Source: Frankiales bacterium (lineage in GTDB: Bacteria; Actinomycetota; Actinomycetes; JAFAQI01). Taken from it: DNA of 64,000 nucleotides. Positions within the stretch are counted from its first letter, which is position 1. Each line of letters begins with the position of its first letter. The notes beneath the pieces were generated by a model. It worked only from the letters and a program-made list of their open reading frames with translations. It ran no database searches and was not told the origin of the DNA. The DNA is taken from contig JAICXQ010000003.1 of NCBI GenBank assembly GCA_025980325.1, positions 18,798 through 82,797 of the forward strand, in the 5' to 3' direction. Below are positions 33,462 to 58,535 of this stretch, one piece after another. A program made the translations under genes and the position numbers.

Positions 33462-33518
33462 GCCGCTGGGTTCGCCGCCGGCCGCCAACCTCCTGTCCCG
33501 GCCAAGTTGCCCGGTCGT

Positions 33519-34763: not shown

Positions 34764-34907
34764 CTCCGCGCCCTTCGCGATTTCGCCACGCCTCTTGGTC
34801 ACTCACTCCTACGCGGCCACGCGCATTTCGCAACGTGAGCAGATGCATCGCGCAAATCACAGCGGGAGTCGAAGAGACAGGCCGCACCGAGCGTCGTACA
34901 AGCCGAC

Positions 34908-34951
34908 CGCGCCAGGATGTCGCCAACCTCAGGACAACCCGTTGCTGGCGC
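34908..34951 (+). promoter_or_regulatory. 11-bp phased heptamer array (site F)
   Basis: CGCGCCA/GTCGCCA/CAGGACA at 34908/34919/34930; 34919-34951 matches 35480-35512 at 26/33 positions. Confidence 0.6.
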
Positions 34952-35020
34952 AGGCACTTCCGTGGTTTCTGATAGATGGTCGAGCGATGCCTGCCGGGCG
35001 ATGGCTGGAGAGGACCCAGC

Positions 35021-35113
35021 ATGGACGCCGATCGGTTCTTCGCCAGCAAGTGGTCACGCGCGGTGCGACTGCGTCGACCACAGCCAGGTCTCCCGTTGCG
35101 AACAACACAGTAG
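35021..35113 (+). CDS. Putative 30-aa small protein MDADRFFASKWSRAVRLRRPQPGLPLRTTQ
   Basis: GGAGAGG 7 nt before ATG. Confidence 0.35.
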   Translation: MDADRFFASKWSRAVRLRRPQPGLPLRTTQ

Positions 35114-35156
35114 AGAGGCACTGGCGCGTGCGTCATCGTTCACTAGGGGAGAGCCG

Positions 35157-35453
35157 GTGAATCTGCGCGACCACCTCATCGACGCGTTGAATGAGGCCAA
35201 ACGAGCTCGCGACGCTGCCGTCGAGAAACTCGCGGTTGTCCTACCGCACCCGCGCACCGGACGTGCACGGCTCGTGGACGCCTCGGTTCTTGACACAACT
35301 CAACGGATCGCACTGTGGCGCTGCGAACACGCGCAGTTGGTGATCGACAGCCTGCAACACTGCATCTGGCTGCACGACTCATCGATGGCGGCCCCCTTTG
35401 ACGCCGTCGTCGCGGCCGACGCCGGCGGCCGCGCCCGCCATCCCTCGACGTGA
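35157..35453 (+). CDS. Hypothetical protein
   Basis: GGGGAG RBS then GTG. Confidence 0.5.
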   Translation: MNLRDHLIDALNEAKRARDAAVEKLAVVLPHPRTGRARLVDASVLDTTQRIALWRCEHAQLVIDSLQHCIWLHDSSMAAPFDAVVAADAGGRARHPST

Positions 35454-35468
35454 AGTCGTGGCACGCAA

Positions 35469-35512
35469 CCGGCCGCCGGGTGGCCAACTTCAGGCCAACT
35501 GGTTGCTGAAGC
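35469..35512 (+). promoter_or_regulatory. 11-bp phased heptamer array (site D) upstream of the IPT gene
   Basis: CCGGCCG/GTGGCCA/CAGGCCA at 35469/35480/35491, then in-phase GTTGCTG. Confidence 0.6.
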
Positions 35513-35591
35513 GGAGTTCGGACGTAGTTACTGGTGAATGTCTGGTGCAGGAGACATCTAGTCGGGGGTGACGCACGATCGAGGAGTAGCT

Positions 35592-37832: not shown

Positions 37833-37868
37833 CGCGCGGGGCCGCCCGCTGTGGAGCGGCGCCGGTGC

Positions 37869-39407: not shown

Positions 39408-39422
39408 GGGACCTCCCGTTCG

Positions 39423-41003: not shown

Positions 41004-41029
41004 GGGAACCTCCTCACGAACCGACGCTC

Positions 41030-41097
41030 ACGCTAGGTCTGGATCAACGACGGCGACAGCGATTGGCGGGCGGCTGTCCAGCGACTGTCCAGCCGCC
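41030..41097 (-). promoter_or_regulatory. 11-bp phased heptamer array (site C) with TAGCGT -10; also folds as a hairpin
   Basis: Minus strand CTGGACA/CTGGACA/CCCGCCA/CTGTCGC starting at 41092/41081/41070/41059; TAGCGT at 41035-41030. Confidence 0.6.
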
Positions 41098-41107
41098 GCC
41101 GCGCCCG

Positions 41108-41701
41108 TCACCCACTCCATTGGTTGATGCACGATTGCAGCGACTCGCGATAGGCGTCGCTGGTGTACGTCGCCCCCGAAACCGTTTGAATATCAGCGTT
41201 TTCGAGCCGCAGCGCCTCCTTGCGCAGTTGCGGGCCGGCGTAGCCGTTGATCTGGTCGTTGGTCGAGTTTCCGTTCGGCAGCTGGAGGTTCACGACGTCG
41301 GCCCAGTGAGTGCCCTGGATCTTGATGGCGACCTGTACCGGGCCGAAGCTGCCGGCCTGGAACGTTTGGCACGTGTAGGTCTGTGCCGGCCCCGCCGCCG
41401 CCTTCGTCTGGTGCGGATCGGCTTTCGCGGCCGGCCCTCCCCCACCAGTGGTAATCGTGACCGTGCGCGTCACGGTGACGGATCGCGGCGGTGGCGCACC
41501 GGCCGGCCGGGCAGGGCGAGCGGACGCGAGAACGCGAGCGGACGCAGGTCCGTCGGGAGTCGTGACGGATCGCATCGCGACCGTGGTCGAGGGCGACGCG
41601 TGCGTCGGGGCCGCGGGCGGGGTGCGGTAGCGCAGGGTCAACGTGAGTCCGACCGCAGTCAGACCGAGTACGACGCCGGTCTTGATGGCGGGCTTCATCA
41701 T
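41108..41701 (-). CDS. Extracytoplasmic FMN-binding (flavinylated) protein
   Basis: FGPVQV, VSGATYTS flavinylation motif (SGAT at 41168-41179); ATGA overlap. Confidence 0.9.
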   Translation of the reverse strand: MMKPAIKTGVVLGLTAVGLTLTLRYRTPPAAPTHASPSTTVAMRSVTTPDGPASARVLASARPARPAGAPPPRSVTVTRTVTITTGGGGPAAKADPHQTKAAAGPAQTYTCQTFQAGSFGPVQVAIKIQGTHWADVVNLQLPNGNSTNDQINGYAGPQLRKEALRLENADIQTVSGATYTSDAYRESLQSCINQWSG

Positions 41702-43113
41702 GCGAGCGCGAACCCTTCCGTGTGGATCCGGCCGATAGGCAATCCGGCGGCACGCAGTCCGCGGTTGACGCGCTCCGTCATCCCGGGCGGGCCGCAGACA
41801 TACGCGTCGCAGCAGCCCGGTTCGGTGATGAGATCGCGAAGCATCGCCGGGCTGAGCGGGTCGTCGTCGTCACCGGTGCCGCGGTGCCCGGTGACCACCA
41901 GCAGCCGGAACCGGTCGGTGCGTTGCAGGCGCACGAGTTCGTCGCCGAAGTTGACCTGACCGGCGTCACTGACGCGGTAGACCAACGTGACCGCGTCGGT
42001 TCCGCTCGCGATGACGTGCTCCGCGATGGCGAGCAGCGGCGCGACCCCGGAACCGCCGCCGATGAGCAGCACTTCCCGGCCGCGACGCAGCCGCCCGCTC
42101 AGTGCGCCGTACGGCCCTTCCAGCAGAACCCGCGTGCCCGGTTGGCAGTGCGCGAGCCAGTTGGTGTGGTCGCCGACCGGCTTGGCGGTCATCCGCAACC
42201 AGGATCCGTTAGGTGCCGCCGACAGGGAGAACGGATGGGCCTGGGACCAGCCGCCGCGAACGAGGAAGCGCCAGCGGAAGTACTGGCCGCCGACGACGGG
42301 CAGCCGATCCAGTCTGCGGCCGGAGACATAGACGCTTGTCGAACCGTCGGGTTCGCTGGTCACGTCGACGACGCGGAAGCGGTGGCGCGCATATCGCCAG
42401 ATCGGATCGCCGATGCGATAGCGCAGCACAAGGAACGCGACGCTGCCGTGCGCGCTCGCCCACACCACCCGAGCCGGAAGGCTGTGCATGAACAGCGCAC
42501 CGGTCGCGAACTGGTGGGCGAACGCCAGTCCGATGCCGACGTACACGTACAGGTGGACCCACTGCCACGTCTCGTAGCGCAACCGGCGGCGGATCGGGCG
42601 AAGCGACGTCATGACCACGAGCGCGAGCAGCCCGAGCCCGACCGTGCCGGCGAGGACATCCGGATAGGTCAGCACCAGGACGGCGGCCTCGTGCACCACG
42701 GAGGTGTGCACCGCCAGCGCATCGCCGATGGTGATGGTCACGGTATGGATGAGAACCAGCCACAAGATGTAGCCGCCGAGCCACCGATGCGCGGCCGCCA
42801 GCCAATCGGTGCCGATGCGATGCTCCAGCGCCGGGACGCGCGCCATCAGCGTGACCTCGACGAGGATCAGGATCGCCGAGAGCATCCCGGCCGACCGGCC
42901 GAGCTCGACCAGCACGCTTCCGGTGCCGCCGGTCTCCCGCGTCACCGGACTCGACCACCAGTACAACAGCACGGCGAAGCACACGAGACCCGCCGACGCG
43001 ACGACGAGCCATGCCGTGGCGCGCCTGGTGAGCACCAGCCGTCGCATCGGCTCGACCGACGGCAGCGCCCGGTCGAGGACCGGCGCTTCGGTCGGGAGCA
43101 CCGCCGACGACAT
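41698..43113 (-). CDS. Ferric reductase-like TM domain fused to FAD/NAD(P)-binding oxidoreductase
   Basis: Four heme-type His (AAHRW, LIHT, WVHLY, FAHQ), HPFSLS, GPYG, GGSGVAP, YVCGP. Confidence 0.92.
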   Translation of the reverse strand: MSSAVLPTEAPVLDRALPSVEPMRRLVLTRRATAWLVVASAGLVCFAVLLYWWSSPVTRETGGTGSVLVELGRSAGMLSAILILVEVTLMARVPALEHRIGTDWLAAAHRWLGGYILWLVLIHTVTITIGDALAVHTSVVHEAAVLVLTYPDVLAGTVGLGLLALVVMTSLRPIRRRLRYETWQWVHLYVYVGIGLAFAHQFATGALFMHSLPARVVWASAHGSVAFLVLRYRIGDPIWRYARHRFRVVDVTSEPDGSTSVYVSGRRLDRLPVVGGQYFRWRFLVRGGWSQAHPFSLSAAPNGSWLRMTAKPVGDHTNWLAHCQPGTRVLLEGPYGALSGRLRRGREVLLIGGGSGVAPLLAIAEHVIASGTDAVTLVYRVSDAGQVNFGDELVRLQRTDRFRLLVVTGHRGTGDDDDPLSPAMLRDLITEPGCCDAYVCGPPGMTERVNRGLRAAGLPIGRIHTEGFALA

Positions 43114-43132
43114 CTTCGCCTCCTCGCTGCCG

Positions 43133-45076
43133 TTACTCGTGGTTCGCGATCAGGTAGACCGGGCCCGCGTACGAAACCATCTGCTCCGTCTCGCCGGATG
43201 CGTCGTCGATGGTCGCGACCACTGCGTTCTCGACCACGCTGCGGCACTGGACGACGGTGTAGACGAGCCCGGCCGCCTGATCCAGTGCGGGCGCGACCGG
43301 ATTGAAGTTCCAGTCGCGTACGTCGTACTTCGCGCCGGCCACGCCGACCGGGCTCGATCCGACCCGTTGCCACGAAGGCGCGCCGGGCGGCAGCCGGTAG
43401 GACCTGATCGACGCGGTCGTGATGCCCGGCGCCGGATCGACGCCGAGGCTCAAGCTCACCCCGTCCGGCAGGAACGACAACCACAGCGGTTGGATCTGGT
43501 TGTAGACGCCGTCCGTCGTCACTTCCTGTGCCTGCGACGACTCCTCGCCGACGGGCAGGTAGACCTCGCGCAAGGTGGTCGGCGACGGCAACGTCGTCCA
43601 GTGCGTTCCGTTGTCGGTCGAGCGCAGCACCACGTAGACGAAGCCGTTCGTCTGCGGGTCGAGGTAGTGCTCGACGACCGCGGCCGCGAAGCCCGAGCCG
43701 TGATCGGCGACCGCGTAGTCGTCGATGTAGGTCATCATCGGATAGCCGACGCCGGTGTCCTCCGTCGGTGCGGCCAGCCCGGTCCAGCTCTTCCCGTAGT
43801 CACCGGACACGTAGAGCGTGCCGTCGGACTCGAACCGCCCGTTCTGGGTGTCGGCGCCGTCCACGCCGTTCGCCCGCGGCGGCGTCGTACCCGGCGGCGT
43901 CTCCACACCGAGCCCGTAGATCCGCCCTGGCCGGCTCGGGTCGACTCGCAACTGGAACAGGTAGTCCTCGGCAGTGCCGACCGCGTACAGCGCCGGCATC
44001 GCCCAGTGCGGACCGGGGCGGATCGGCACGGCGGCGAGTTGCCAGGTCGAGCCGCCGTCACGGCTCACGAACAACCGCATCCGGCCCGAGCTCGCGCTGG
44101 TTCCCGGCGCTGCGTCGGCGGCCGTCTCGAGATACACGACGTGGGGATCGGTCGGTGCGACGGCGAGCAGTTGCGGGTACCCGCTCCCCGCCGGCAGGGC
44201 CTGCATGGCGCTCGTCACTTGCATGCCACCCGCCGACACGGGTTGGCCGGCCAGCGGAACTGAGGCCGACCACGTCGTGCCGCCGTCGGCGCTCGCCGCC
44301 AGCACCACATGCCCGCCGTACGTTCCGTACGCCGTCGACCACCACGGCGGCGCGATGGTCGCGTAGACCTGGTCGCCGGCTGCGGCAATCGCGGTGACGG
44401 CATATCCGGGTGGCACCGGGATCGCACCGTCGGTGACCGACGCGCCCGCGGGATGCGCGGTCGGATCGAGCGACAGCACCGGAGCCCACGAACACCCGCC
44501 GTCCGACGTGCGCAGCACCTTCGTGCCGTCCGACGCGAGCAGCCGTCCGGGCCGCCCACCGGGAACGACGAACGACGTGGACGCAACAGCGGCGCCGCCA
44601 CCCACACCTGCCGGCGGCACGCCCACCACCTGCTGACCGCTGTTGACCGCCGCGCTTGCGGTGTCCCACACCGAAGACGACGCATCCGGCATCCCGACGA
44701 CGGCAAGCCGGCCGGTGACCCGCACGCCGGGGCATGGGCTGCGGGTGAGCACGTTTCCGGTCGCGACCGGCAGCTGCGCCGGTCCCTGTGCGCCGTACGG
44801 CGTCGTTGGCGGCGCCTCGGTCCGGCGCACCAGCGTCACCACCCGGACCTGCGCACCGGGCGGGGCCGGCGCGCCGTCCGCGGCGCCGGAAGGCTGCCGC
44901 CTCGGCAGGGCCGCGCCGGCGTGACCGGCGGCCAGCGACACCGGTCGTTGGGGCAGCAACAGCGTCAGAGCGATCAGCGCCGCGGTCGTCGCACTCGCGA
45001 CGACGCTCGGCCGCTTGGCGATCACCCCGGCGTGCAGCCGCCAACCGCTCGCCCGTCCGGTCGACAAGGCGAGCAT
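43133..45076 (-). CDS. Secreted BNR/Asp-box beta-propeller protein (paralog C)
   Basis: TSDGGCSW, SADGGTTW, SRDGGSTW, SGDYGKSW, STDNGTHW; TGATG overlap. Confidence 0.8.
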   Translation of the reverse strand: MLALSTGRASGWRLHAGVIAKRPSVVASATTAALIALTLLLPQRPVSLAAGHAGAALPRRQPSGAADGAPAPPGAQVRVVTLVRRTEAPPTTPYGAQGPAQLPVATGNVLTRSPCPGVRVTGRLAVVGMPDASSSVWDTASAAVNSGQQVVGVPPAGVGGGAAVASTSFVVPGGRPGRLLASDGTKVLRTSDGGCSWAPVLSLDPTAHPAGASVTDGAIPVPPGYAVTAIAAAGDQVYATIAPPWWSTAYGTYGGHVVLAASADGGTTWSASVPLAGQPVSAGGMQVTSAMQALPAGSGYPQLLAVAPTDPHVVYLETAADAAPGTSASSGRMRLFVSRDGGSTWQLAAVPIRPGPHWAMPALYAVGTAEDYLFQLRVDPSRPGRIYGLGVETPPGTTPPRANGVDGADTQNGRFESDGTLYVSGDYGKSWTGLAAPTEDTGVGYPMMTYIDDYAVADHGSGFAAAVVEHYLDPQTNGFVYVVLRSTDNGTHWTTLPSPTTLREVYLPVGEESSQAQEVTTDGVYNQIQPLWLSFLPDGVSLSLGVDPAPGITTASIRSYRLPPGAPSWQRVGSSPVGVAGAKYDVRDWNFNPVAPALDQAAGLVYTVVQCRSVVENAVVATIDDASGETEQMVSYAGPVYLIANHE

Positions 45077-46566
45077 CAACAGCCGCCGGTATAGAGAAGG
45101 CCGTACGAAGTCACCGTCGTCGCCGTCTGGAACGTCGGGGTCGTCTGCTGGCGCGACACGTACGCCGTCACGAACAGCCGGCCCGAGCTATCGGTCAACC
45201 GGAAGTCGGAATAGGACACGCTGGCATTCGTCTGGACCGGGAAGCCGGGCGTCGCGACCGCCGACCACCTGCCGTGGTGCAACCGCAGGAACCGATAGGC
45301 CGTCGCAGCGGCCGGCGTCGTGGTCGAGGAGTTGGCGGCGCCGAAGTAGGCGCCGTTCTGCAACTCGGCCAGAGCCAGCACGTCCTGGCTGCCGGCGCAG
45401 ACCCAACGCGGGCGCGCGGCGCTGACGTAACCCCACGCGTTCAGCGTCGGCGGGACCGGCAGCACCTTCCACGTGCGGCCGCCGTTCGTCGAGGCGTAGA
45501 TCTTGGGTGGCGGCAACGTGCCGTTCACGCCGCCGTCCGGCCAGTTCATCAGCAGCCGCGCGGCCGCGCCGTGAGGGTGGACGGCGTCCAGCCATTGCAC
45601 GCCCATGCCCTGCGCACGCCGGGTGCCGAGCGTGTGCGGGGCGCGCGGCACCGCGTACCACGTGCGGCCGCCGTTGGTCGACTGGGAGACGACGCCGTCC
45701 TGGCTCCCCCAGTCCGACGATCCGTACGCCCACAGGGTGCGCGGGTTCGACGGATCCACGACGAGCCGCCCGTTGGCAACGGTGTTCAACGACTCGCCGA
45801 GGACGTACCAGCTCGCGCCGCCGTTCGTCGTCCCGAGCGCCTCGAACGTCTGGTACGCCGCCGACAGTGCCGGGGTCCCGGCCTCGTCGTCGACGATCGA
45901 GGCAACCTCGCCCACCGCAGGGGCCGGCGTGGTCGCGGTGGCGTTCAGCGACAGGTAGACGGTGCGCGGATCACTCGGCGCGACGTAGAGCGAGGGCGTG
46001 GCCGACGGTGTGAACACCGGGACCGGCTGCCCGCCGGCCGCCGACGGCGCTTCGACGACGGACAGCTTCCAGCTCGTCCCGCCGTTGGTGCTGACCGCCC
46101 AGAACAGCGGCGCGCCGGCTTCGGTCGCCAACTGGTCCATGGCGGTCCCCTCGCCGCGGATGAGGGCGTACGCGACGGTCGGGCCGGCCGCCACGACCGA
46201 GGTGATGGCGGCGTCCGGCCACGCCCGCAGCAACGTGTCCGGAACGCCGACCGCGGACGGGTCGCGGGTCGGGTCGAGACTGAAGACGGTCGACCAGCTG
46301 CACCCGAGGTTGGTCGAGCGCATGATCGTGTCACCGTTGGTGGCGAACAGCCGCGAACCCGATCCGCCGGGAACCATGTCGGCCACCCCGGCCTGGGTGT
46401 GCGACGCGGCCGACGCCGGGAACGCCGGCGGGTCGACGACCGTCCAGGGTCCGTGTCGATGCCCGCAACTGCTGGCGGCGCCGACCGGTGTGGTTCCGGC
46501 ACCGGTACCGAGCCCGCCGAGTGTTGCGGCCAGCAGGACGGACAAGGCGCGGGTACGGCGCATCAT
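45076..46566 (-). CDS. Secreted BNR/Asp-box beta-propeller protein (paralog D)
   Basis: STNLGCSW, STNGGTSW, TTNGGASW, STNGGRTW x2; ATGA overlap. Confidence 0.85.
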   Translation of the reverse strand: MMRRTRALSVLLAATLGGLGTGAGTTPVGAASSCGHRHGPWTVVDPPAFPASAASHTQAGVADMVPGGSGSRLFATNGDTIMRSTNLGCSWSTVFSLDPTRDPSAVGVPDTLLRAWPDAAITSVVAAGPTVAYALIRGEGTAMDQLATEAGAPLFWAVSTNGGTSWKLSVVEAPSAAGGQPVPVFTPSATPSLYVAPSDPRTVYLSLNATATTPAPAVGEVASIVDDEAGTPALSAAYQTFEALGTTNGGASWYVLGESLNTVANGRLVVDPSNPRTLWAYGSSDWGSQDGVVSQSTNGGRTWYAVPRAPHTLGTRRAQGMGVQWLDAVHPHGAAARLLMNWPDGGVNGTLPPPKIYASTNGGRTWKVLPVPPTLNAWGYVSAARPRWVCAGSQDVLALAELQNGAYFGAANSSTTTPAAATAYRFLRLHHGRWSAVATPGFPVQTNASVSYSDFRLTDSSGRLFVTAYVSRQQTTPTFQTATTVTSYGLLYTGGC

Positions 46567-49274: not shown

Positions 49275-49280
49275 CAGGCA

Positions 49281-50828
49281 CTAGCCCGCGTAGGCCCGGA
49301 CGAGATCGAACTCCCCGGTGCCGCCGCACTGCGCCACGAGCCCCGCGCTCCGTTCGACCGGGCACGGGTCCGTGCTGACCTGCGTCGGCTGGTCGGCGAT
49401 CGAGAGGTACACATGGCGGCCGGCGGGATCGACGGCGGTCGCGACCGGCCACACCGAACCGAGCGAGCCGACACTGGTCGGGTCCCGGACGTCGTAGCGC
49501 GCCACCCACGCTTGCTTGCCGGCCGAGGTGAAGGCGACGACCACCGGATAACCGGCGTCGGCCGCGATCGGGCCGATGAGCCCGGCGACATAGAGCATGG
49601 TGCCGCGGGCGTTCACCGCGCCGGTTGTCGCCAATGCGGAATAGCTCCCGGTGGCGGAATAGCCGGCGGGGGCGTAGGTGGACAGCCACGTGCTGTGGCC
49701 GGTGCGAGTGTCGAGCGCCGTGGCGGCGAGCCCGCCGCTGCCCGACCCGACCAGGAACAACCGGTCGCCGTGCGGGCTGACCGTCCAGGCCACCGGCGTG
49801 ACCGCGCCGTTGCGAGCCACCCAGCGGGTCTGTCCCCGGCTCGTCGAATAGGCGACGACGAGCGGCTGCGTCACCGGGCTGGTCGAGGTGCCGAACGTCG
49901 CGGTGCCGGCCACGAACACCTGGTCGTTGCGCGGGCTGATGGCGATGCCGGCGGGCTGATGATCCGAGCCCAGATGTGTGATCGCCCGCCAGTTCTGCCG
50001 GCCCGTACGAGCGTCGTAGCGAATCACGGCCTGGTCGTAGACGTGCACACCGGTCGTCTCGGCATGCTCGCTCGTTCCGGCGACGTATACGGCGCGGCCG
50101 TCGGGCGACAGCGACAGGCCGACGGGCGAGTTCTGGCCGCCCGCGAGGCCGCCGTACCGGGAGAGCCACAGCTGGCGTCCGTTGCGCAACGAGTACGCGA
50201 TCGTGATCCATTCGATGTACGGCCGCTGGAAGCCGGCGCTGTACTGGCTGTTGCCGGTGACGATGACCTCCTGGCGCTGCGCGTCGATGGTCATGGCCAC
50301 CGGCACGTTGGTCTCGCCACCCAGCCGGTAGATGGCGGACCAGACCGCCCGGCCGTTCGACGTCGAGTACGCCGTCGTCAACCAATAGACCAGCACCTTG
50401 GCGTTGAGGTTCGGCTGGTAGTTGACCGTGCCGGTCACGAGGACGAGCGACTGGTCCGGCGTCAGTGCGAGCGACGTCGCTGCGGTCGTCAGCGAGGTCG
50501 GTGCGTGAGCCAACCAGATGGTGCCGCCGTTCGAGGTGCTCAGTGCCGCGACGGTCACATGCGGCTGGCTCTGGCCGACATAGCTCGTGGTCGCGACATA
50601 GATCCGGTCGCCACGGCGATCGACGACCGTGCCGGCCGGAACGTCGCTGACCGGCGAGCCGTCCGGACTGCGGTCGTTGAACGAGCGCGACCACTGTTCG
50701 CACCGGTCGTTGAACCCCGACACTTGGTTCACGCAGACGGCCAGCGGCGCGCCGTAGCCCGTCGGCGCGAACGGCAGCAGGATCCCGGCGACAACCAACG
50801 CCGCCGGTAACCGGGAATGCGTGAACAT
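49281..50828 (-). CDS. Secreted PQQ-like beta-propeller protein
   Basis: Repeats AYST.NG..VW, AYSL.NG.QLW, YDARTG.QNW, SPDG.AVYVAG; Cys pairs at both termini. Confidence 0.85.
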   Translation of the reverse strand: MFTHSRLPAALVVAGILLPFAPTGYGAPLAVCVNQVSGFNDRCEQWSRSFNDRSPDGSPVSDVPAGTVVDRRGDRIYVATTSYVGQSQPHVTVAALSTSNGGTIWLAHAPTSLTTAATSLALTPDQSLVLVTGTVNYQPNLNAKVLVYWLTTAYSTSNGRAVWSAIYRLGGETNVPVAMTIDAQRQEVIVTGNSQYSAGFQRPYIEWITIAYSLRNGRQLWLSRYGGLAGGQNSPVGLSLSPDGRAVYVAGTSEHAETTGVHVYDQAVIRYDARTGRQNWRAITHLGSDHQPAGIAISPRNDQVFVAGTATFGTSTSPVTQPLVVAYSTSRGQTRWVARNGAVTPVAWTVSPHGDRLFLVGSGSGGLAATALDTRTGHSTWLSTYAPAGYSATGSYSALATTGAVNARGTMLYVAGLIGPIAADAGYPVVVAFTSAGKQAWVARYDVRDPTSVGSLGSVWPVATAVDPAGRHVYLSIADQPTQVSTDPCPVERSAGLVAQCGGTGEFDLVRAYAG

Positions 50829-50847
50829 CCGATGACTCCGTCCTGCG

Positions 50848-53121
50848 CTACACGGCAGCCAGGCTGGCGTGGTTGCGCTGAGCGTTCAGCGCGACCTCGA
50901 AGTCGTTCATGGTGATGGTGATCCCGCTCTTCGGCGTACGACCGTTGCGGGTGACTCGGTTGAGCGCCTTCCGCCCGGCACTGTCGCGCAGCCGCTTGAG
51001 ATCGGCGCCCGACATCCCTTCGGTGCCGGGGATGAGTGAACGCAGGTTGACCGTCTTCGCGAGGTTCACCTCCCGGCACAGCAGTTGCAGCAACTGCAAC
51101 CGCGCCGGCGCGTCCGGCAGACCTACCTCGACGGGCTCGAGCCGACGGCCGACGACGGCTTCGTCGATGGTGTCGATCCGGTTGGTGGCGCCGACGAGCA
51201 GCACACCGTCACCGCCCTTGAGCCCGTCCAGTTCGCGAAGGAACTGGGAGAGCACGCGCTCCTCCCATTTCGCGTTCGAGTCGCCCGACCGCCGGCGCAG
51301 GAGTGCGTCGATCTCGTCGATGAAGATGATCGAGGGCCGGTTGGCTCGTGCTTGGGTGAACAATTTGGCGACCCGCTGCTCGGACTCTCCGGCCCACTTG
51401 CTGAGCAGGTCGGCCGCACTCATCTCGTAGAAGCTGGCCTGGATCTGACTGGCCATGGCTTTCGCGATCGTCGTCTTGCCCGTACCCGGAGGGCCGAAGA
51501 GCAAGACGCCGGCCGGCGGCTGGATCCCGACCTGGCGGGCGAGTTCGGGACGGGTGAAGATCGTGAGCACTTCCATGACCCGTTCCCGGGTCTCCTCGGC
51601 GAGTACGACGTCGGGCCAGCCGACGGTGTGCTCGAGGCTGAGCCGGTGCTGGCCGCCCCGATCCGCGATGGCCTGCGCGAGCACCTCCTGCGTGATCGGT
51701 GCTCCGTCCCGCAGCGCCGCCTGGGCAGCGAGCGAGACGACCGTCTCCAGCGCCGCGGCGTTGTAGCCGTGCGTGACGCGGGACAGCGCCGCGAGATCCA
51801 GGGTGGCCCAGTCGACGGCGTCGCCGCGGCGCCGCAGGTGCACGTCGAGGACGGTGACCCGGTCGTCCGGATCCGGCAGCGGGACGTGAATCTTGGCGTC
51901 GAACCGCCCTTCGCGCAGTGCCGGATCGAGCCGGTCCAGATCGTTGGTGCCGGCGGCGATGATCAGGCCCGGGACGTTGCGGTACTCCTCGAGGCAGACC
52001 ATCAACTGGGTGACGACCTCTCGGTGATCGGCCGACGGCTGGTCACCGCGATCGGAGGCGATGGTGTCGATCTCGTCGAGGTAGAGGACGCACGGAGCGT
52101 TTCGCTTGCCGAGCTCGAAGAGCTGGCGAAGGTTGGTCGCGGCTTCGTGGATGTACGCGCTCGCGATGCTCGCCGGCGAGAACCGCAGGTAGCGCAACCC
52201 GTACTCGCCGGCGAGGGCCCGGCTCAGCAGGTTCTTGCCGGTGCCGGGTGGGCCGTAGAACAGGATGCCGTTGTGCACGACCTGGTAGCGCGCGGCTTCG
52301 TCCGGACGTTCGAGGATGGCGCCGACCGATTCGCGCAACGCGCGCTTGACCTTCTCCAGCCCGCCGACATCGGCGAAGGTCTCGCACTCGGCGGGCGGCA
52401 GTACGCGTAGTCGGTTGTCCCGTCCCACGGTTGAGTTGTTGTCCAGTCCGGGCGCGACGCGGATCTGGCTGCCCAACAGGTCGGCCGCGAGCCGGTATCC
52501 GGCGGTCTGCCGTTGACGCAGCCGGGCGGCCGCCTCTGCCGCGGCGAGCGGCCCGTCGTCGGGCTTGACGTGGTCGAGCTGGACCTTGGCCTGACGGCAC
52601 TCGGCGACGTTCTCCTCGAGCCGGGCCAACCCCTCGGTTCCGACCGCACACGTGGCCATCGCACGGTTCAACGCGACGATGAAGCGGCGGCCGGAGATGG
52701 TCAGCTCGTGCTCGGCCGCCTCGACCGCCGTACCCGCCGCGCCGAAGTCGAGCCGGTCGACCGCGTCCCGAGCCTCGGCGAGCCGGGCCAACGCGACCTG
52801 TGCGTGCTTGAGTTCGCCCTCGGCTTTGCCCAGCAGATCCGGGATTCTGGCCGCGACGAGCCGCTCGAAACCCTCGGCCATGTCCTCGACCGACTGGCGG
52901 AGCACGGCGAGCACTTGGACCGCCTCGTCGCGCGCCGCGTGTTCCTCGGCCGACCAGGTTGCCTCCAGCGCGGCTTTCGCCTGGCGTCGGCGTAACCGCG
53001 GAATCGACGCGAGCTCCGCGTCCTTCTCCACGCGGTGCAGGACGTCCCGCTGAGTCAGTCGGGCGGCGTGCCGACGGTAGTGCAGGACGTCGGGATTGCG
53101 CGCAGCGGACGAGCGTGGCAC
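50848..53121 (-). CDS. Double-AAA (CDC48/p97-like) ATPase with N-terminal helical/coiled-coil region
   Basis: D1 GPPGTGKN, LYLDEID, LDPALREGRFD; D2 GPPGTGKT, SKWAGESE, IFIDEID, GATNR. Confidence 0.92.
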   Translation of the reverse strand: MPRSSAARNPDVLHYRRHAARLTQRDVLHRVEKDAELASIPRLRRRQAKAALEATWSAEEHAARDEAVQVLAVLRQSVEDMAEGFERLVAARIPDLLGKAEGELKHAQVALARLAEARDAVDRLDFGAAGTAVEAAEHELTISGRRFIVALNRAMATCAVGTEGLARLEENVAECRQAKVQLDHVKPDDGPLAAAEAAARLRQRQTAGYRLAADLLGSQIRVAPGLDNNSTVGRDNRLRVLPPAECETFADVGGLEKVKRALRESVGAILERPDEAARYQVVHNGILFYGPPGTGKNLLSRALAGEYGLRYLRFSPASIASAYIHEAATNLRQLFELGKRNAPCVLYLDEIDTIASDRGDQPSADHREVVTQLMVCLEEYRNVPGLIIAAGTNDLDRLDPALREGRFDAKIHVPLPDPDDRVTVLDVHLRRRGDAVDWATLDLAALSRVTHGYNAAALETVVSLAAQAALRDGAPITQEVLAQAIADRGGQHRLSLEHTVGWPDVVLAEETRERVMEVLTIFTRPELARQVGIQPPAGVLLFGPPGTGKTTIAKAMASQIQASFYEMSAADLLSKWAGESEQRVAKLFTQARANRPSIIFIDEIDALLRRRSGDSNAKWEERVLSQFLRELDGLKGGDGVLLVGATNRIDTIDEAVVGRRLEPVEVGLPDAPARLQLLQLLCREVNLAKTVNLRSLIPGTEGMSGADLKRLRDSAGRKALNRVTRNGRTPKSGITITMNDFEVALNAQRNHASLAAV

Positions 53122-55320
53122 TTAGACCTCCTTCACACCGACGAGGACCTTGCCCCCGCGGTGACCATTGCGCGAACGCGTGAGCACGCTGCCGAACATC
53201 TCCATCTCGGGCTGGACGTCGGTCAGCAGATCTTCGAGGGCTTGGCCCTCCAGCGTTTCCTGTTCCTCCAGCCGTTCGGCGAGCGTGTCCAACGTGGACC
53301 GGTGGGTGAGGAGCAGCTGCCCGGCCTCCCGCTGTGCGTCCTCGATGACCCGGCGGATCTCGGCGTCGACTTCCTGATGGGTCAGCCCGGACACGGAGCC
53401 GAGCTGTACGTCCGCCTCGAGGAACTCGTCGACATCGGCGGCGAGCAGGCGGACCTTGCCGAGCTTGTCGCTCATGCCGTAGCGGCCGACCATGTCGCGC
53501 GCGAGCATCGTCGCCTCGACCAGGTCCTGCTCCGCGCCGGTGGACGGCTCGCCGAAGACGATCTCCTCGGCTGCCACTCCGGCGAGGTGGATCGCGAGTC
53601 GATGTTGCAGCTGGGTGCGGGTGAGGACGGCGACCTCTTCGTCGGATGCGAACGTCGCTTTGCCGAGGTTGCGGCCGCCGGTCAGGATGGACACGCGGTG
53701 CACGTCTTCGAACCGGCCCGTGGCCGCGGCGACGACGACGTGACCGCTTTCGTGGTAGGCGATCCGCTTGCGCTCCTCGGTCGTCAGGCTCCGGGTGCGC
53801 CGTACCGTGCCGTTGAGCGCGCGCTGGACGCCCTCCTCCATGTCGACGGCCTCGATCTCGTCCTTTCCTTGCCGGATCGCGAGCAACGCGGATTCGTTGA
53901 TGACGTTCGCGAGATCGGCACCGGAGAATCCGGGAGTACGGCGCGCGAGACCGAGGAAGTCGACGTCCGGGGCCAGCGGCTTGCCGCGCGAGTGCAACTC
54001 GAGGATCTTGGCGCGCCCGGCGAGGTCCGGTCGCTCGACCGTGATGTGGCGGTCGAACCGACCGGGACGCAGCAACGCCGGGTCGAGGATGTCAGGCCGG
54101 TTCGTCGCGCCCATGACGACGATGCCGCTGGACACGTCGAAGCCGTCCATCTCGACGAGGATCTGGTTGAGCGTCTGCTCGCGCTCCTCGCTCCCCCCGC
54201 CCGCGCCGCCCTGGGCTCGCTTGCGGCCGGCGGCGTCGAGCTCGTCGATGAAGACCACCGCCGGTGCGACGGCGCGCACGCGACGGAACAGATCGCGAAC
54301 GCGAGCAGCGCCGACGCCGACCAGCGATTCGACGAACTCCGCGCCGGCGACCGAGAAGAACGGAACCCCGACCTCGCCGGCCACTGCCTTCGCGAGCAGC
54401 GTCTTGCCGCAGCCGGGCGGTCCGATGAGCAGGACGCCTCGCGGGGGCTGCGCGCCGAGCTGCTTGTAACGACCCGGATCGGCCAGGTAGTCGCGGACCT
54501 CCTTGAGCTCCTCGACTGCCTCGTCCGCACCCGCGACCTGGGCGAAGGTCACCGGAGTCTTCTTACGACGGCTGAACCGGCCCTTGCCGATCGAGCCGAA
54601 CAGTTCGACCTCGCCGATGCCGGACGCCGATCCGCGATTCGACGTGAACAGCAACACGAAGACGTTCGCGAGCATCAGCAGCGGCAGCACCAGTGTCGCG
54701 ATGATGCGCATCTCGCTCTTGCGCGTCTGTGTGTCGATGACGACGCGAGCGCCGCCGTCGGTGAGCAGCTGCATGAACAGCGGAGTCGCCGAGTCGCTCT
54801 TCGGATAGGCGACCCAGAACTTGGCAGTTCCCGTGACAACCGTTGCGGTCCTCGTCGGGTCGGGTGCCGGGTGCTGCTGTGGTTGGTTGGCCGACAACCG
54901 CATCGAATCGGCGCAGGTGGGCGAAGTCGCGCGCGGCGAGACGAACGGCGCCGTGGTGGTCGGCTGGTAGCCCTGGCTCGGTGTGGCGGTCGCGGGCGTC
55001 GTACAGGTGTATTCCCCGACGATCTGTGCGTCCTCGTCGCGGAATGTCGCCGACACGACCTGATGCTGGACGGCCAGGGCGCTCAACTGATCGACGGTGA
55101 TCTGGCGGCCCACCGGATGTGGTGCGAGATAGCCGAGGCTCAGGAAGAACAGCACGGCCAGGCCGGCGAGGGTGCCCATGAGCACGTACGTCTGCCGGCT
55201 TCGGGTCTTGCGCTTCGCGACCCGCGCGCGCCGCCATTGACGTACGGCGATCAACGTTTCGCGCTGGAGCCAGCGACCCGCGCGCACCCCGCTGCCACTC
55301 ACACGACTGAGCAGGTTCAC
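53122..55320 (-). CDS. ftsH: ATP-dependent zinc metalloprotease FtsH paralog
   Basis: Two TM, GPPGCGKT, FIDELD, EEREQTLNQILVEMDGF, ATNRPDILDPALLRPGRFDR, HESGH, TGAEQD. Confidence 0.93.
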   Translation of the reverse strand: MNLLSRVSGSGVRAGRWLQRETLIAVRQWRRARVAKRKTRSRQTYVLMGTLAGLAVLFFLSLGYLAPHPVGRQITVDQLSALAVQHQVVSATFRDEDAQIVGEYTCTTPATATPSQGYQPTTTAPFVSPRATSPTCADSMRLSANQPQQHPAPDPTRTATVVTGTAKFWVAYPKSDSATPLFMQLLTDGGARVVIDTQTRKSEMRIIATLVLPLLMLANVFVLLFTSNRGSASGIGEVELFGSIGKGRFSRRKKTPVTFAQVAGADEAVEELKEVRDYLADPGRYKQLGAQPPRGVLLIGPPGCGKTLLAKAVAGEVGVPFFSVAGAEFVESLVGVGAARVRDLFRRVRAVAPAVVFIDELDAAGRKRAQGGAGGGSEEREQTLNQILVEMDGFDVSSGIVVMGATNRPDILDPALLRPGRFDRHITVERPDLAGRAKILELHSRGKPLAPDVDFLGLARRTPGFSGADLANVINESALLAIRQGKDEIEAVDMEEGVQRALNGTVRRTRSLTTEERKRIAYHESGHVVVAAATGRFEDVHRVSILTGGRNLGKATFASDEEVAVLTRTQLQHRLAIHLAGVAAEEIVFGEPSTGAEQDLVEATMLARDMVGRYGMSDKLGKVRLLAADVDEFLEADVQLGSVSGLTHQEVDAEIRRVIEDAQREAGQLLLTHRSTLDTLAERLEEQETLEGQALEDLLTDVQPEMEMFGSVLTRSRNGHRGGKVLVGVKEV

Positions 55321-55385
55321 GCCCGACCTCCGGCTCTGTGGCGATGGATGAAGCCGCCGAAAACTGTGTGTCCGCTTCGATTTCG

Positions 55386-55452
55386 AGGTTAGGGAGAACG
55401 GGACACAAGGCCCAGGACTGCGGCTGGACAACACCTGGCCAGCCCGCTGCCA
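55386..55452 (-). promoter_or_regulatory. 11-bp phased heptamer array (site B) and TAACCT -10 upstream of the ftsH operon
   Basis: Plus strand CAGGACT/CTGGACA/CTGGCCA/GCTGCCA at 55413/55424/55435/55446. Confidence 0.7.
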
Positions 55453-55540
55453 AACTCTTCCGGCACGACGATCGGCGTCACTACCTTCCGCTCGGTCCCC
55501 ACCACGTACGAGCCAGGAGGCGCTGTGACGGTCGCGGCAC

Positions 55541-55858
55541 ATGCTCACGCCTGAGACGTGGGCGGAGATCCGCCGGCTACATCTTTCGGAGGGAGCGGGA
55601 ATACGGGAGATCGCGCGCCGCCTGGAGATATCGCGCGACACGGTGCGGCGAGCGCTGCGTTCGTCGGAGCCGCCGCGCTATCTGCGCCCTCGCCGACCGT
55701 CGCCATTGGACCTGCTCGAGCCGATGATCCGCGACGTGCTCGCCGCCCACCCCGAATATTCGTCGACACAAGTGTCCCGACGGGTCGGCTGGCAAGGATC
55801 GGGATCCGCGATGCGCGCGCGGATACGGCGAATCAAGTCAGCCGAACAGGACAGCTGA
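55541..55858 (+). mobile_element. IS21-family IstA N-terminal HTH only (105 aa), remnant or domesticated
   Basis: WAEIRRLH..EG..IREIARRL.ISRDTVRRAL.S..PP.Y.RP...S.LD; no DDE domain, no istB. Confidence 0.75.
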
Positions 55859-55869
55859 TGACGTTGCGC

Positions 55870-57429
55870 TCAGCCGGTCGCGACCCGCTCGCGCTGCGAC
55901 GACTTCCGCTGCCTGGCCGCAACCGAACTCGTGCCGTTCGGTGGCGCGGCGGGCTCCGGAACTGCCCGGCTCATTCGCTCGTGATAGTCGGCTTCCTCGG
56001 CATCGCCGTTGCGGTCGTACCACTGCCACGCGCGCTGGTGCAGTTGGATCTGGCGCGGCAGCGTCAGCCGTTGATAGACGTAGTCCCGCACGCTCGTATG
56101 GATGAACGCCACGTCGCCGCTTCGTCCGCGCACGGCGATGTGGCATCGCGCCAAGTGGCGGCAGACGTCGGTGACCTCGCCCATCGTGCGCTGCGCGACG
56201 TAGGCCAACTGGGCGTCGCTGAAGCGGTGGCGGAAGACGCTGGCCGCCTCGAGGATGTCCCGGTCGTAGGAGTCCATCAACTCGGTCAGGCAATCCAAGA
56301 GAAATGCCTGGACCTCGTCCTGCTCGGTGAAGACCGCCATGCCGCCGGCGATCTCGTCGGTGGTCGCGGTGGTCAGCCACGAGCCGGCCAGCTGGGTGAG
56401 CTGCGGGATGCCCCTGGTCCATGCGTGCACCGAGGTGGCGAGATCGGGCGTGATGCTCGGGACCAGTTGCCGCAGCAGCACCTGCGTCTCGCGAGCGGTG
56501 AAGCCGGGGACGAGCATCGGTACGGCGCAGGACGGTCGCGGGTCCTGATGACGGCCCACGGTGATGAGTTGCAACGTCGGCAGGCGCCGTACCGCGTCGT
56601 CGAGGAACGTGCCGATGGCCGGGTCCAGCTCGCTGAGGTGATAGTCGTCGAACACGAGCAAGGTGCGCACGTTCGACAGTTCCTGAACGGCCACCCGGCT
56701 GAGCAGCAGGACGTCGACGTTGGGCAGCGAAGCGGCGGTCAGCTCGGCCAAGCGCGGATGGCGCTGGGCGCGAAGGTGTTGAGCCAGCTCGAACAGAAGC
56801 GCACGCAACGAGTCGTTGACGCCGGTGCGCAGCCGGTACCAGAGCACCGGCGCGACCGAGGATGCCTCGACCGCGAGCTCGGCGATCAGGCTGGTCTTGC
56901 CGATGCCGGCCGGGCCGTGGACGTGGACTCCCCGGTGCTTGCCGAGCGCCGCCTTCAGCGCCTCCGCGACACTTGGCCGGGGCAGGAACCCACTGATCGC
57001 AGGGACGGGCTCGAAGTAGTAGTTGCTGCTCGCTCCGGTGAGGCCCTGCAACTCGGCGACGAGATCGGCGCGCAGCAACGCGATCGCGCGGGATCGCTCC
57101 CGGGTGAGCTGGCGCACCGACAGTCCGAGCTTGTCTGCTGCGCTCTCCAGCTTCGCCCCGTCGACGAAGCAGGTTCGCAGCACCAGGTAGGGAAGCTGTT
57201 CCTTCCAACCGGCGCCGTCAGCGGGCTCCAGTCGCTCGATCGCCTCGTGCACCAACTCGGACGCCACGCGACCGACGGCGAGCGGCGATGCAGACTCGGG
57301 CAACCGGTCGCAGACTTTGAGCAACTGCGTCATGGCCGGGTCGGCCAATCGATGCGGCTCGCGAAGGTCGCCGAGCCACGCACGAACAGCGGATTCCGAG
57401 ACGATGTCGCCCACTGCGATGTCGGTCAC
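55870..57429 (-). CDS. HTH + STAND (NB-ARC/MalT-like) ATPase transcriptional regulator
   Basis: Sigma-r4-like HTH (AADKLGLSVRQLTRERSRAI), GPAGIGKT, LLVFDDYH, RGIP, winged helix, short TPR-like end. Confidence 0.8.
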   Translation of the reverse strand: MTDIAVGDIVSESAVRAWLGDLREPHRLADPAMTQLLKVCDRLPESASPLAVGRVASELVHEAIERLEPADGAGWKEQLPYLVLRTCFVDGAKLESAADKLGLSVRQLTRERSRAIALLRADLVAELQGLTGASSNYYFEPVPAISGFLPRPSVAEALKAALGKHRGVHVHGPAGIGKTSLIAELAVEASSVAPVLWYRLRTGVNDSLRALLFELAQHLRAQRHPRLAELTAASLPNVDVLLLSRVAVQELSNVRTLLVFDDYHLSELDPAIGTFLDDAVRRLPTLQLITVGRHQDPRPSCAVPMLVPGFTARETQVLLRQLVPSITPDLATSVHAWTRGIPQLTQLAGSWLTTATTDEIAGGMAVFTEQDEVQAFLLDCLTELMDSYDRDILEAASVFRHRFSDAQLAYVAQRTMGEVTDVCRHLARCHIAVRGRSGDVAFIHTSVRDYVYQRLTLPRQIQLHQRAWQWYDRNGDAEEADYHERMSRAVPEPAAPPNGTSSVAARQRKSSQRERVATG

Positions 57430-57646
57430 GTCACTCCCATCTCACCGCCGAGGGTTTGGACAGGAGATTGGACACGACGGGCACGAGTTCCTGTGTCTGC
57501 AAGCCGCGCATCGAAAATCGTCGACACCTGAAAACTAGCCCGCTCGGTCTTGTGAAACCCCTACGGCCGCGTTCCGAATCCCTTGGTTCGTGCGCGTGGT
57601 CCTCCTCCGGCTGGACGTGCGGGCTGTGCGCCACATGGTTGCGGGG

Positions 57647-57723
57647 ACTCTATTGAAAGCAGTGGGCGCAAGGTGCGCAGGTCCTGGCCAACCGCTGGAC
57701 AACCACTGGCCAGCGCGCCGCCA
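57647..57723 (-). promoter_or_regulatory. 11-bp phased heptamer array (site A) and TAGAGT -10 upstream of the STAND regulator
   Basis: Plus strand CTGGCCA/CTGGACA/CTGGCCA/GCCGCCA at 57684/57695/57706/57717. Confidence 0.7.
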
Positions 57724-57776
57724 GCCGGATCGCGGACGTCGAGTCGTCGCAGTGAACCGGAACGACCGCTCGTCGC

Positions 57777-58517: not shown

Positions 58518-58535
58518 CGGCAGCGTAAGCGGTGC

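Follow-up and report, generated by a model that had tools for sequence, protein, structure and literature searches.

Phased heptamer arrays in a soil actinobacterium: candidate promoter elements probably read by REG, a STAND protein with a predicted sigma-region-4-like domain

Introduction

The closest described systems, as presented in the parts of the cited papers drawn on here, are activators that read repeated short boxes close to the promoter. SARPs bind 11-bp direct repeats whose 3' repeat is located 8 bp away from the -10 element; the afs box spans -19 to -40 (PMC10936776). PimR combines a SARP with a STAND ATPase; its main operator consists of three heptamers separated by 4 bp, and a secondary pair is spaced differently (PMC5930380). 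On the DNA, SARP protomers line up along a single face, either adjoining the -35 region or covering it (PMC5930380, PMC10936776). The box of MalT has its 5' end at -34.5 to -35.5, and the proximal box overlaps the -35 region (PMC7567727). Here, five arrays of heptamers are analysed in a 64,000-nucleotide (nt) stretch of an uncultured soil actinobacterium (Frankiales bacterium, assembly GCA_025980325.1; contig C53:18798-82797 in the numbering used here; hereafter the window). They surround genes for an FtsH-like protease, for secreted propellers and for a STAND protein named REG here. The arrays are probably upstream promoter elements which are bound by oligomers of the adjacent REG (55870-57429).

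The genes themselves recall another described group. FtsH ternary conflict systems (MoxR-vWA-FtsH) contain a double FtsH-type AAA component and are expanded in actinobacteria, and STAND proteins and beta-propellers are among their associates (Kaur et al. 2020, PMC7159879). Neither promoter arrays nor a regulator combining a helix-turn-helix (HTH) with a STAND domain are described for these systems in the part of PMC7159879 drawn on here. No description of this regulator family or of the arrays was found in the open-access literature searched.

Results

Five intergenic arrays and their orientation

The first-pass annotation had placed five heptamer arrays (A to E, Table 1) in the window, and by direct reading of the sequence each listed heptamer is present. 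The same is true of a TTGGACA pair with a 12-bp period (57456/57468), reported before the regulator start. All five arrays are intergenic, as claimed, according to start codons and to G+C content at third codon positions (GC3). The open reading frame (ORF) that runs through array B is a non-coding 5' extension of the ftsH-like gene (GC3 0.66 vs 0.87 in the gene), which starts with GTG at 55320 and has a GGAGG ribosome-binding site in front. The fourth unit of array B is better read as CTGCCAA from 55447, which gives a 12-bp step. The reported identity of 26/33 between D and E applies when the compared stretches begin at 34919 and 35480 (counted by hand); when they begin at 34908 and 35469, it is 21/33. 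The D and E regions are duplicates of ~100 nt with 74% identity (MAFFT).

The units had been read as CTGGMCA. At sites A and B this is the wrong strand: the genes lie on the minus strand, and the functional (sense) units are the reverse complement, TGGCCAG/TGTCCAG. The sense reading is easily overlooked because CTGGCCAG is a palindrome. In the arrays upstream of ftsH-like genes of this genome and of related loci, the sense strand has three copies of the core TG(G/T)C at an 11-bp period.

Rarity of the arrays

Counted over both strands, the 2.7-Mb genome has 6 matches to the strict pair CWGGMCA-N4-CWGGMCA. Four of these matches are within this 23-kb locus, and the remaining two are both strands of one palindromic site on contig C57. 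The same pair with other spacers is nearly absent (0, 0, 1 and 0 matches for spacers 0-3; 0 for spacers 5-15 except 1 at spacer 15). Ten first-order Markov genomes contained the strict pair 0 times in nine cases and once in one (~0.1 per genome). The generic pattern TG[GT]C-N7 x3 has 13 matches in the genome and 1-6 (mean 3.3) in the simulations, while TG[GT]C x3 at periods of 10, 13 and 14 bp has 0, 1 and 2 matches in the genome. Among the generic-pattern sites (12), 8 flank three REG clusters, 1 precedes a BNR gene on C57, 3 are in long ORFs and 1 is elsewhere. Those in long ORFs and elsewhere correspond to about the background expectation. The first-pass annotation had named equal frequency of such arrays in coding or random intergenic DNA as grounds for refutation. 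Checked genome-wide and in simulated genomes, this is not so, and it is confirmed that the arrays are far beyond chance.

Arrays accompany REG

FtsH-family paralogues in five other genomes were used for comparison. Those with a REG homologue on the same contig, within ~12 kb, have a sense-strand array in 9 of 9 cases. Eight of the nine pass a strict test (at most one mismatch in three TGKC cores at exactly 11 bp; K is G or T), and in the ninth, L050, the units are spaced 10+11 bp, with CATCGT 21 nt downstream and then an ATG. Arrays were found in none of 6 FtsH-like paralogues (>=50% identity) without a nearby REG and in none of 7 canonical ftsH genes (<=49% identity). One array-bearing locus (L051) on a contig without REG was counted for neither side. 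This genome repeats the pattern: its three REG clusters (C53, C34, C103) have arrays, and the ftsH-family genes on C72, C10 and C97 have no TGKCx3 match.

The REG paralogues on C34 and C103 are 46-47% identical to REG, and each is part of a further copy of the FtsH-like/Cdc48-like cluster with its own 11-bp arrays. The module of regulator, FtsH-like protease, double-AAA ATPase and propellers is thus found three times in the genome, in the window and at C34:86569-95455 and C103:10317-25055 (together loci L013-L015). One related metagenome-assembled genome (MAG) has 7 REG and 11 FtsH-like genes. This expansion suggests diversifying, possibly conflict- or surface-related functions. REG adjoins an FtsH-like and Cdc48-like pair in the paralogue loci of this genome and in L017-L025, L029, L030 and L033. 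Arrays are also found upstream of REG in many other loci, where in divergent arrangements they are the array of the neighbouring gene. Autoregulation of REG is plausible here, and it is not a rule of the family.

Promoter geometry

The distance to the promoter was assessed on 22 arrays anchored on their last unit (site B, the C57 site, the paralogue loci of this genome and 12 loci of other genomes). In 18/22 arrays a hexamer of the form nAnnnT follows the last unit at an offset of 20, 21, 22 or 23 nt (4, 11, 3 and 1 cases, respectively). Any other window of four offsets between 0 and 55 holds 0-3 cases. The four arrays without nAnnnT at 20-23 nt are both C34 arrays, L025 and L033. A table of bases over the 22 arrays revealed no -35-like consensus in the 21-nt spacer between the last unit and the -10. 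If transcription starts ~7 nt after the predicted -10, the heptamers would be at about -62 to -56, -51 to -45 and -40 to -34. A scan of 55250-57800 for consensus sigma-70 promoters and terminators returned 0 sites, which is uninformative for high-GC promoters without a -35.

In six promoters (L020, L021, L022, L023, L050, L069) an ATG is found 6-7 nt after the hexamer, a layout which suggests leaderless transcripts. Leaderless mRNAs are common in actinobacteria. The regulator genes of one clade likewise look leaderless. In these layouts the hexamer has ACT or GT as its last letters, and the ATG comes 6-7 nt later.

The REG protein

The AlphaFold model of REG has a mean pLDDT of 89.1. Residues 136-491 match the NOD of MalT (8bob_D) with Z 29.0 and a root-mean-square deviation (rmsd) of 3.1 over 344 amino acids (aa), and with a Foldseek E-value of 2.5e-11. 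The NCBIfam MalT profile matches REG at E 3.2e-9. Across 34 REG homologues neither Walker A (GxxGxGKT) nor Walker B (DD) varies. A disordered tail is all that follows the NOD, which reaches to about residue 491, so that REG lacks both a sensor domain and a C-terminal HTH.

When modelled on their own, the N-terminal 140 residues reached a pLDDT of 90.5. This model matches 31 PDB chains at Z >=5, of which ~25 are sigma factors or their region 4, among them CnrH (Z 7.1), SigL (7.1), BldN (7.0; rmsd 1.4 over 59 aa), SigR region 4 (6.6) and SigE region 4 on -35 DNA (5.9). The matches span residues about 45-130 of REG. Sequence comparisons point the same way, though weakly: a profile search of the PDB found SigF region 4 at E 0.027 over 44 aa, and hhalign against the ECF sigma region 4 of this genome gave E 8.5e-4 over the HTH at 24% probability. 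A faint lead comes from residues 1-150 of homologue P0009, for which Sigma70_r4 is found on 13% of the members of one Protein Atlas cluster (score 0.87). REG proteins share the motif LG(L/I/M)S-x-RQL(T/S)RER almost without variation, and Ser104, Arg106, Gln107 and Arg110 are invariant in 34 sequences. REG is thus modelled as a sigma-region-4-like HTH (~45-130) fused to a MalT-type STAND ATPase (136-491), with modest fold scores for the HTH.

A Pfam scan of REG at E up to 1 returned 12 families, all of them P-loop/STAND, and neither PF00486 nor PF03704. Pfam scans also found no GerE (LuxR HTH) match and no Sigma70_r2 match. Judged by its domains, REG is neither a SARP (no OmpR-type winged HTH, no BTAD) nor a member of MalT/LAL (no LuxR HTH). 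It is not a sigma factor either: it has no region 2, and the rest of the protein is a NOD.

REG has >120 homologues of ~440-570 aa (437-569), every one of them from a metagenome or a MAG. Their annotation is either hypothetical or "MalT", and AAA_16-type domains are all that Pfam detects in them. At E 1e-40 or better the family is present in 2/301 sampled genomes of the class, this genome included. A scan of metagenome contigs for relatives yielded 5 weak loci, none of them useful. The family is rare and found only in uncultured soil bacteria, which limits its reach and explains why it was overlooked earlier.

Recognition-helix residue and unit type

The residue after the invariant Ser104, which opens the recognition helix, varies with the unit type. 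Glu goes with TGGCG units at 10 loci (L019-L024, L026, L030, L033, L034; the L030 array failed the zero-mismatch scan, and its units are a hand reading). TGKCC units go with Val, Pro, Arg or Thr (this window; C34 and C103, loci L013 and L014/L015; L017/L060; L025; L029). A contact of Glu to the cytosine opposite G5 would be chemically ordinary. The correspondence of Glu with G and of other residues with C is weak as an indication of a protein-DNA match.

Individual sites

Site B is the sole site of the window which fits the promoter model fully, and site A fits it loosely. With the predicted start of site B near 55379, the leader up to the GTG at 55320 would be ~59 nt long. Site A has no -10 at 20-23 nt after its four clean units. 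The in-register TGCGCAC and the hexamer TAGAGT (Table 1) may be the missing promoter parts, in which case the leader would be ~210 nt long. An Rfam scan of the whole window returned 0 matches, so that this long regulator leader is without a known RNA element. The TTGGACA pair is possibly a secondary operator, and it would lie in the leader just before the ribosome-binding site if the site-A promoter holds. It recalls the secondary two-heptamer operator described for PimR (PMC5930380).

Array C lies 61 nt upstream of the BNR pair, and array E, on the minus strand, is a zero-mismatch TGKCx3 match ~106 nt before the gene of a 427-aa protein. A uniform geometry for all five window sites was considered and rejected; C, D and E do not fit. 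When the units of C, D and E are read in the orientation of the first-pass annotation, nAnnnT hexamers are found by hand 27-28 nt downstream (TAGCGT 28 nt after CCCGCCA; GAATGT; GATGGT). C, D and E may therefore form a second, inverted class of sites, 27-28 nt from the -10 and with units half a turn further upstream. This class is given little weight, because D and E are duplicates and the evidence amounts to two independent cases at most. The IPT protein downstream of D has no orthologue in 25 relatives, hence there are no orthologous promoters with which D and E could be compared. The ends of D and E carry an inverted repeat CAAC-NN-GTTG (GCCAACTGGTTGC and GACAACCCGTTGC; 34930-34947 and 35491-35508), which could be a separate dimer operator overlapping the two arrays.

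A sixth site lies outside the cluster, on contig C57, upstream of a secreted BNR-like gene (Table 1). It has the unit type of the REG of this window, which supports the regulon idea. The array motif can likewise be used to predict other regulon members outside the clusters.

Contigs of four soil runs contain 29 variant places over 55200-57800. None of the intergenic ones (55465, 57553, 57619, 57766 and a 1-nt deletion at 55360) falls within an array, a candidate -10 or the TTGGACA pair, and their number is too small for a test.

Genomic setting

The genome assembly comprises 2.70 Mb in 129 contigs (68% complete, 70% G+C). The sequencing runs that contain the locus are soil metagenomes, with no RNA run among those listed for 52000-58600, and the relatives with the same genes are uncultured MAGs labelled "Frankiaceae", "Mycobacteriales" and "Actinomycetota bacterium". 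Genes were mapped by GC3-guided ORF calls and Pfam/NCBIfam matches (Table 1). Downstream of array B, the abutting or overlapping genes of 41108..55320 (-) probably form an eight-gene operon.

The ORF at 55541-55858, which the first-pass annotation had proposed as a second DNA-binding protein, corresponds to the first 103 positions of an IS21 transposase (NF033546). It has a GC3 of 0.75, is located between the REG gene and array B, 88 nt from the array, and has no counterpart in the related loci compared. In the C34 paralogue locus the array directly follows the regulator stop codon, whereas at the window locus the fragment lies in between. By its profile match this ORF is an insertion remnant, not a regulator.

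A ferric-reductase-like flavocytochrome and an FMN_bind protein (41108-43113) are found within the propeller cluster and ApbE (57777-58517) beside it. The set is reminiscent of extracellular electron-transfer or NOX-like modules, here alongside secreted propellers. FtsH-type and Cdc48-type models match the two AAA domains of the 757-aa ATPase (50848-53121) equally well. PADLOC has no model for REG or the propellers, and the two AAA proteins match generic AAA models only (IetA, TRIP13). The 427-aa protein (33519-34802) matched no Pfam, NCBIfam or PADLOC family, and its gene adjoins a GH92 glycosidase gene (31080-33488).

Table 1. Arrays, candidate promoter parts and genes; coordinates are those of the window unless a contig is named.
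Feature	Position	Strand	Description
Array A	57684..57723	-	Plus-strand reading CTGGCCA 57684, CTGGACA 57695, CTGGCCA 57706, GCCGCCA 57717; sense TGGCGGC, TGGCCAG, TGTCCAG, TGGCCAG, exact 11-bp period; upstream of REG; two overlapping zero-mismatch TGKCx3 matches
Possible degenerate fifth unit of array A	57673..57679	-	TGCGCAC; in register, 11 bp after the fourth unit; read by hand
Candidate -10 of REG	57647..57652	-	TAGAGT; 20 nt after TGCGCAC; read by hand; missed by the consensus promoter scan
TTGGACA pair	57456..57474	.	Plus-strand reading; 12-bp period; 27-45 nt before the REG start codon
Array B	55413..55452	-	Plus-strand reading CAGGACT 55413, CTGGACA 55424, CTGGCCA 55435, GCTGCCA 55446; sense TGGCAGC, 12-bp step, then TGGCCAG, TGTCCAG, AGTCCTG at 11 bp; promoter array of the ftsH-like operon
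Candidate -10 of array B	55386..55391	-	TAACCT; 21 nt after AGTCCTG (55413-55419)
Array C	41064..41092	.	Minus strand CTGGACA (5' ends 41092 and 41081), CCCGCCA 41070; plus strand TGGCGGG, 12-bp step, TGTCCAG, TGTCCAG
Array D	35469..35508	.	CCGGCCG 35469, GTGGCCA 35480, CAGGCCA 35491, plus GTTGCTG 35502; upstream of the IPT/TIG gene; duplicate of array E
Array E	34908..34947	.	CGCGCCA 34908, GTCGCCA 34919, CAGGACA 34930, plus GTTGCTG 34941; minus strand TGTCCTG, TGGCGAC, TGGCGCG; between the 427-aa gene and the 98-aa ORF
Sixth site	C57:21353-21381 (locus L016, about 7354-7382)		TGGCCAG / TGGCCAG / CGGCCAT, 20 nt, GATGGT, GAAGGAGG ribosome-binding site, secreted BNR-like gene
ftsH-like array, this window			TGGCCAG / TGTCCAG / AGTCCTG
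ftsH-like array, C34			TGTCCGG / TGTCCGC / TGTCCGC
ftsH-like array, C103			TGGCCAT / TGGCCAC / CGGCCAG
ftsH-like array, L019			TGGCGAC three times
ftsH-like array, L033			TGGCGGA / TGGCGCG / TGGCGCG
REG	55870-57429	-	519-aa STAND protein
FtsH-family protease	53122-55320	-	TIGR01241, 637.8 bits vs 600-bit cut-off
Double-AAA Cdc48-like ATPase, 757 aa	50848-53121	-	Pfam/NCBIfam
NHL propeller	49281-50828	-	Pfam/NCBIfam
Three BNR proteins	46563-49274, 45076-46566, 43133-45079	-	Pfam/NCBIfam
Ferric-reductase-like flavocytochrome	41698-43113	-	Ferric_reduct, FAD_binding_8, NAD_binding; Pfam/NCBIfam
FMN-binding protein	41108-41701	-	FMN_bind; Pfam/NCBIfam
BNR gene pair beyond array C	39423-41003, 37869-39407	-	
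Secreted IPT/TIG protein gene	35568-37832	+	Convergent to the BNR pair
98-aa ORF	35157-35453	+	
Secreted 427-aa protein	33519-34802	-	Signal peptide; no family
ApbE flavin transferase gene	57777-58517	-	Upstream of the ftsH-like gene, as is a STAS gene
IS21 transposase N-terminal fragment, 105 aa	55541-55858	+	First 103 of the 294 positions of NF033546; E 4.1e-16, a score under the curated cut-off

Discussion

REG as an oligomerising activator which also acts upstream of its own gene is the best reading of the arrays, because they co-occur with REG, which carries a predicted DNA-binding domain. In the proposed mechanism, each heptamer, whose core is TG(G/T)C and which for this paralogue reads TGGCCAG or TGTCCAG, would be bound by one REG HTH, and the 11-bp spacing would place three or four protomers on one face of the DNA. 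The units at about -62, -51 and -40 would abut the place of the -35 hexamer, at promoters with a -10 and without a -35 consensus. In a class-II-like activation, the oligomer on the DNA would then recruit RNA polymerase or position it, as MalT and SARPs do. REG is presumably the binder, its binding would activate transcription and ATP-driven oligomerisation would be needed. Sites A, C, D and E are presumably used as well, and A may serve autoregulation.

The earlier claims are supported in part. The reading of the arrays as cis-regulatory promoter elements on one helix face holds, with the conserved -10 distance not found at C, D and E. A single regulator had been proposed for ftsH, the propeller pair, the IPT gene and itself. 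The C57 array fits such a regulon, and the arrays near the propeller pair, the IPT gene and the small ORF suggest that these may belong to the same regulon.

Several observations weigh against the activator reading. In the window, site A meets the 20-23-nt rule only with the poor fifth unit TGCGCAC, and at C, D and E neither orientation has an nAnnnT 17-24 nt away. Many of the 22 arrays are orthologous (L020-L023; C103 with L051), so that the counts overstate their independence. The REG tree groups all Glu proteins in one clade, which reduces the covariation of Glu with G to one evolutionary event. One Glu protein (L069) has a poor array of another type, and the partner (L050) of a Val protein (L018) has mixed units. 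The recognition helix is nearly invariant, which leaves the avoidance of cross-talk among up to 7 paralogues per genome unexplained. The HTH fold scores are modest (top Z 7.1), Foldseek found nothing at E 0.001 or better with the N-terminal model, and Pfam sigma region 4 (PF08281) is under E 0.001 on no REG locus of this genome. One REG clade (L021-L023, L026) has an inverted array upstream of REG, ~90 nt from the likely -10, so that neither orientation nor distance is uniform, and the closest REG homologues (L017, L018) have no array upstream of REG.

The alternative that survives best, although it is unlikely, keeps REG as the binder and makes it mainly a repressor or anti-activator, which would cover the DNA beside the -35 position and so keep sigma region 4 away until it is released by a signal. 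A last unit at about -40 to -34 would suit this role, since the DNA-binding domain of REG is predicted to share the fold of the domain with which it would compete. Arrays upstream of REG itself are typical of negative autoregulation, and the TTGGACA pair just before the REG start codon also fits. However, the 21-nt spacer has no -35 consensus and the promoters look activator-dependent. The known STAND transcription factors MalT, AfsR and PimR moreover activate, according to the parts of the literature drawn on here (PMC7567727, PMC10936776, PMC5930380).

It is improbable that another DNA-binding protein, such as an OmpR/PhoB-type response regulator or a SARP, reads the arrays and REG is a mere neighbour. 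Both of these groups use 11-bp direct repeats, the hallmark of winged-helix activators (PMC10936776). Yet the arrays track REG (9/9 vs 0/6 FtsH-like paralogues; 3 vs 0 in this genome), the unit type follows the REG clade, and no other DNA-binding gene is conserved in the clusters. A SARP in particular is disfavoured by repeats which end 20-21 nt from the -10, not 8 bp.

Very improbable is the view of the units as promoter elements of alternative sigma factors, either sigma-54-like -24/-12 or an ECF -35 element. The genome does have >=39 ECF-type region 4 matches above the cut-off, and TGGC-N7-TTGC or TGGC at 11 bp, read by hand, mimics the GG-N10-GC register. The sigma-54 reading of TGGC-N7-TTGC was rejected, as no rpoN is found in 26 genomes: Sigma54_DBD was detected in 0/26 (this one, 68% complete, and 14 at >=90% complete among them), while control genomes were positive. 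As for sigma factors in general, the arrays have a housekeeping-type nAnnnT at a fixed distance, 21 nt is too long for a -35/-10 pair, and three to four units exceed the need of a sigma factor.

That the arrays are chance or non-regulatory sequence, such as remnants of mobile elements or recombination sites, is hardly credible: the IS21 fragment 88 nt from array B and the mutual duplication of D and E hint at it, but the counts are far above controls, the arrays keep their place with respect to the -10 in genomes with proteins that are only 45-75% identical, and related loci carry arrays without an IS fragment.

Activation by REG may be taken one step further, in a speculative proposal which is itself rather doubtful. 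REG would be a detached, oligomerising -35 reader, doing the job of sigma region 4 at promoters without a -35, with an ATP-loaded STAND ring or filament keeping three copies in register. The paralogous FtsH/Cdc48/propeller clusters, up to 7 per genome, would then each have a private -35 code (with units such as TGGCCAG, TGTCCGC, TGGCCAC, TGGCGAC or TGGCGCG). If true, promoter specificity would be reached here in a new way, intermediate between sigma factors and classical activators and different both from winged-helix SARPs and from sigma adaptation (PafBC, AfsR).

Comparison with known systems

The first-pass annotation had compared the arrays with the sites of oligomerising activators of the SARP or MalT type. 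The similarity in working holds (NOD, phased repeats, a site on the -35 side), and the defining domains of both families are absent from REG.

The large SARPs (SARP-LAL; PimR and AfsR of Streptomyces), as far as the cited sources describe them, resemble REG in having an N-terminal DNA-binding domain followed by a STAND/NOD ATPase. SARP sites are heptameric direct repeats with a period of 11 bp, or of 22 bp, and the 11-bp form is likewise seen in the window arrays. In contrast to SARPs, the predicted fold of the REG DNA-binding domain is sigma-region-4-like and not an OmpR-type winged helix with a BTAD. The last REG-linked heptamer ends 20-23 nt before the predicted -10 in 18/22 arrays, compared with 8 bp in SARPs. 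Unlike large SARPs, REG has no TPR sensor, and its probable targets are protease, AAA and secreted-propeller genes rather than antibiotic clusters.

MalT/LAL proteins (E. coli MalT; Actinoplanes MalT) share the NOD core with REG and are its best structural match. MalT is an ATP-dependent oligomerising activator with repeated short boxes, and the last REG-linked unit would be at about -40 to -34 from the predicted start. MalT has a C-terminal LuxR-type HTH and a large SUPR/TPR sensor, whereas the HTH of REG is N-terminal and the chain ends after the NOD (519 aa; homologues 437-569 aa, longer fused forms not having been searched for). The box sequence and the strict 11-bp triple also differ from those of MalT.

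Region 4 of the sigma-70 family, including ECF factors, resembles residues ~45-130 of REG in its fold (Z <=7.1), with the motif LGxS-x-RQLxRER in REG and LGxSxGTVKSRL in sigma. As with sigma region 4, the REG-linked sites are on the -35 side, but they form a triple repeat, and REG has no region 2. The likeness to FtsH ternary systems concerns the regulated genes and not the arrays, and no MoxR or vWA gene was seen in the window cluster.

The arrays and REG give a handle on an unstudied module of FtsH-like protease, double-AAA ATPase and secreted BNR/NHL propellers, here together with a ferric-reductase/FMN/ApbE set. Beside MalT/LAL and the large SARPs, REG would represent a third design of STAND transcription factor, in which a predicted N-terminal sigma-region-4-like HTH is mounted on a sensor-less NOD. 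With it would come a DNA code that can be read and a promoter geometry that is fixed.

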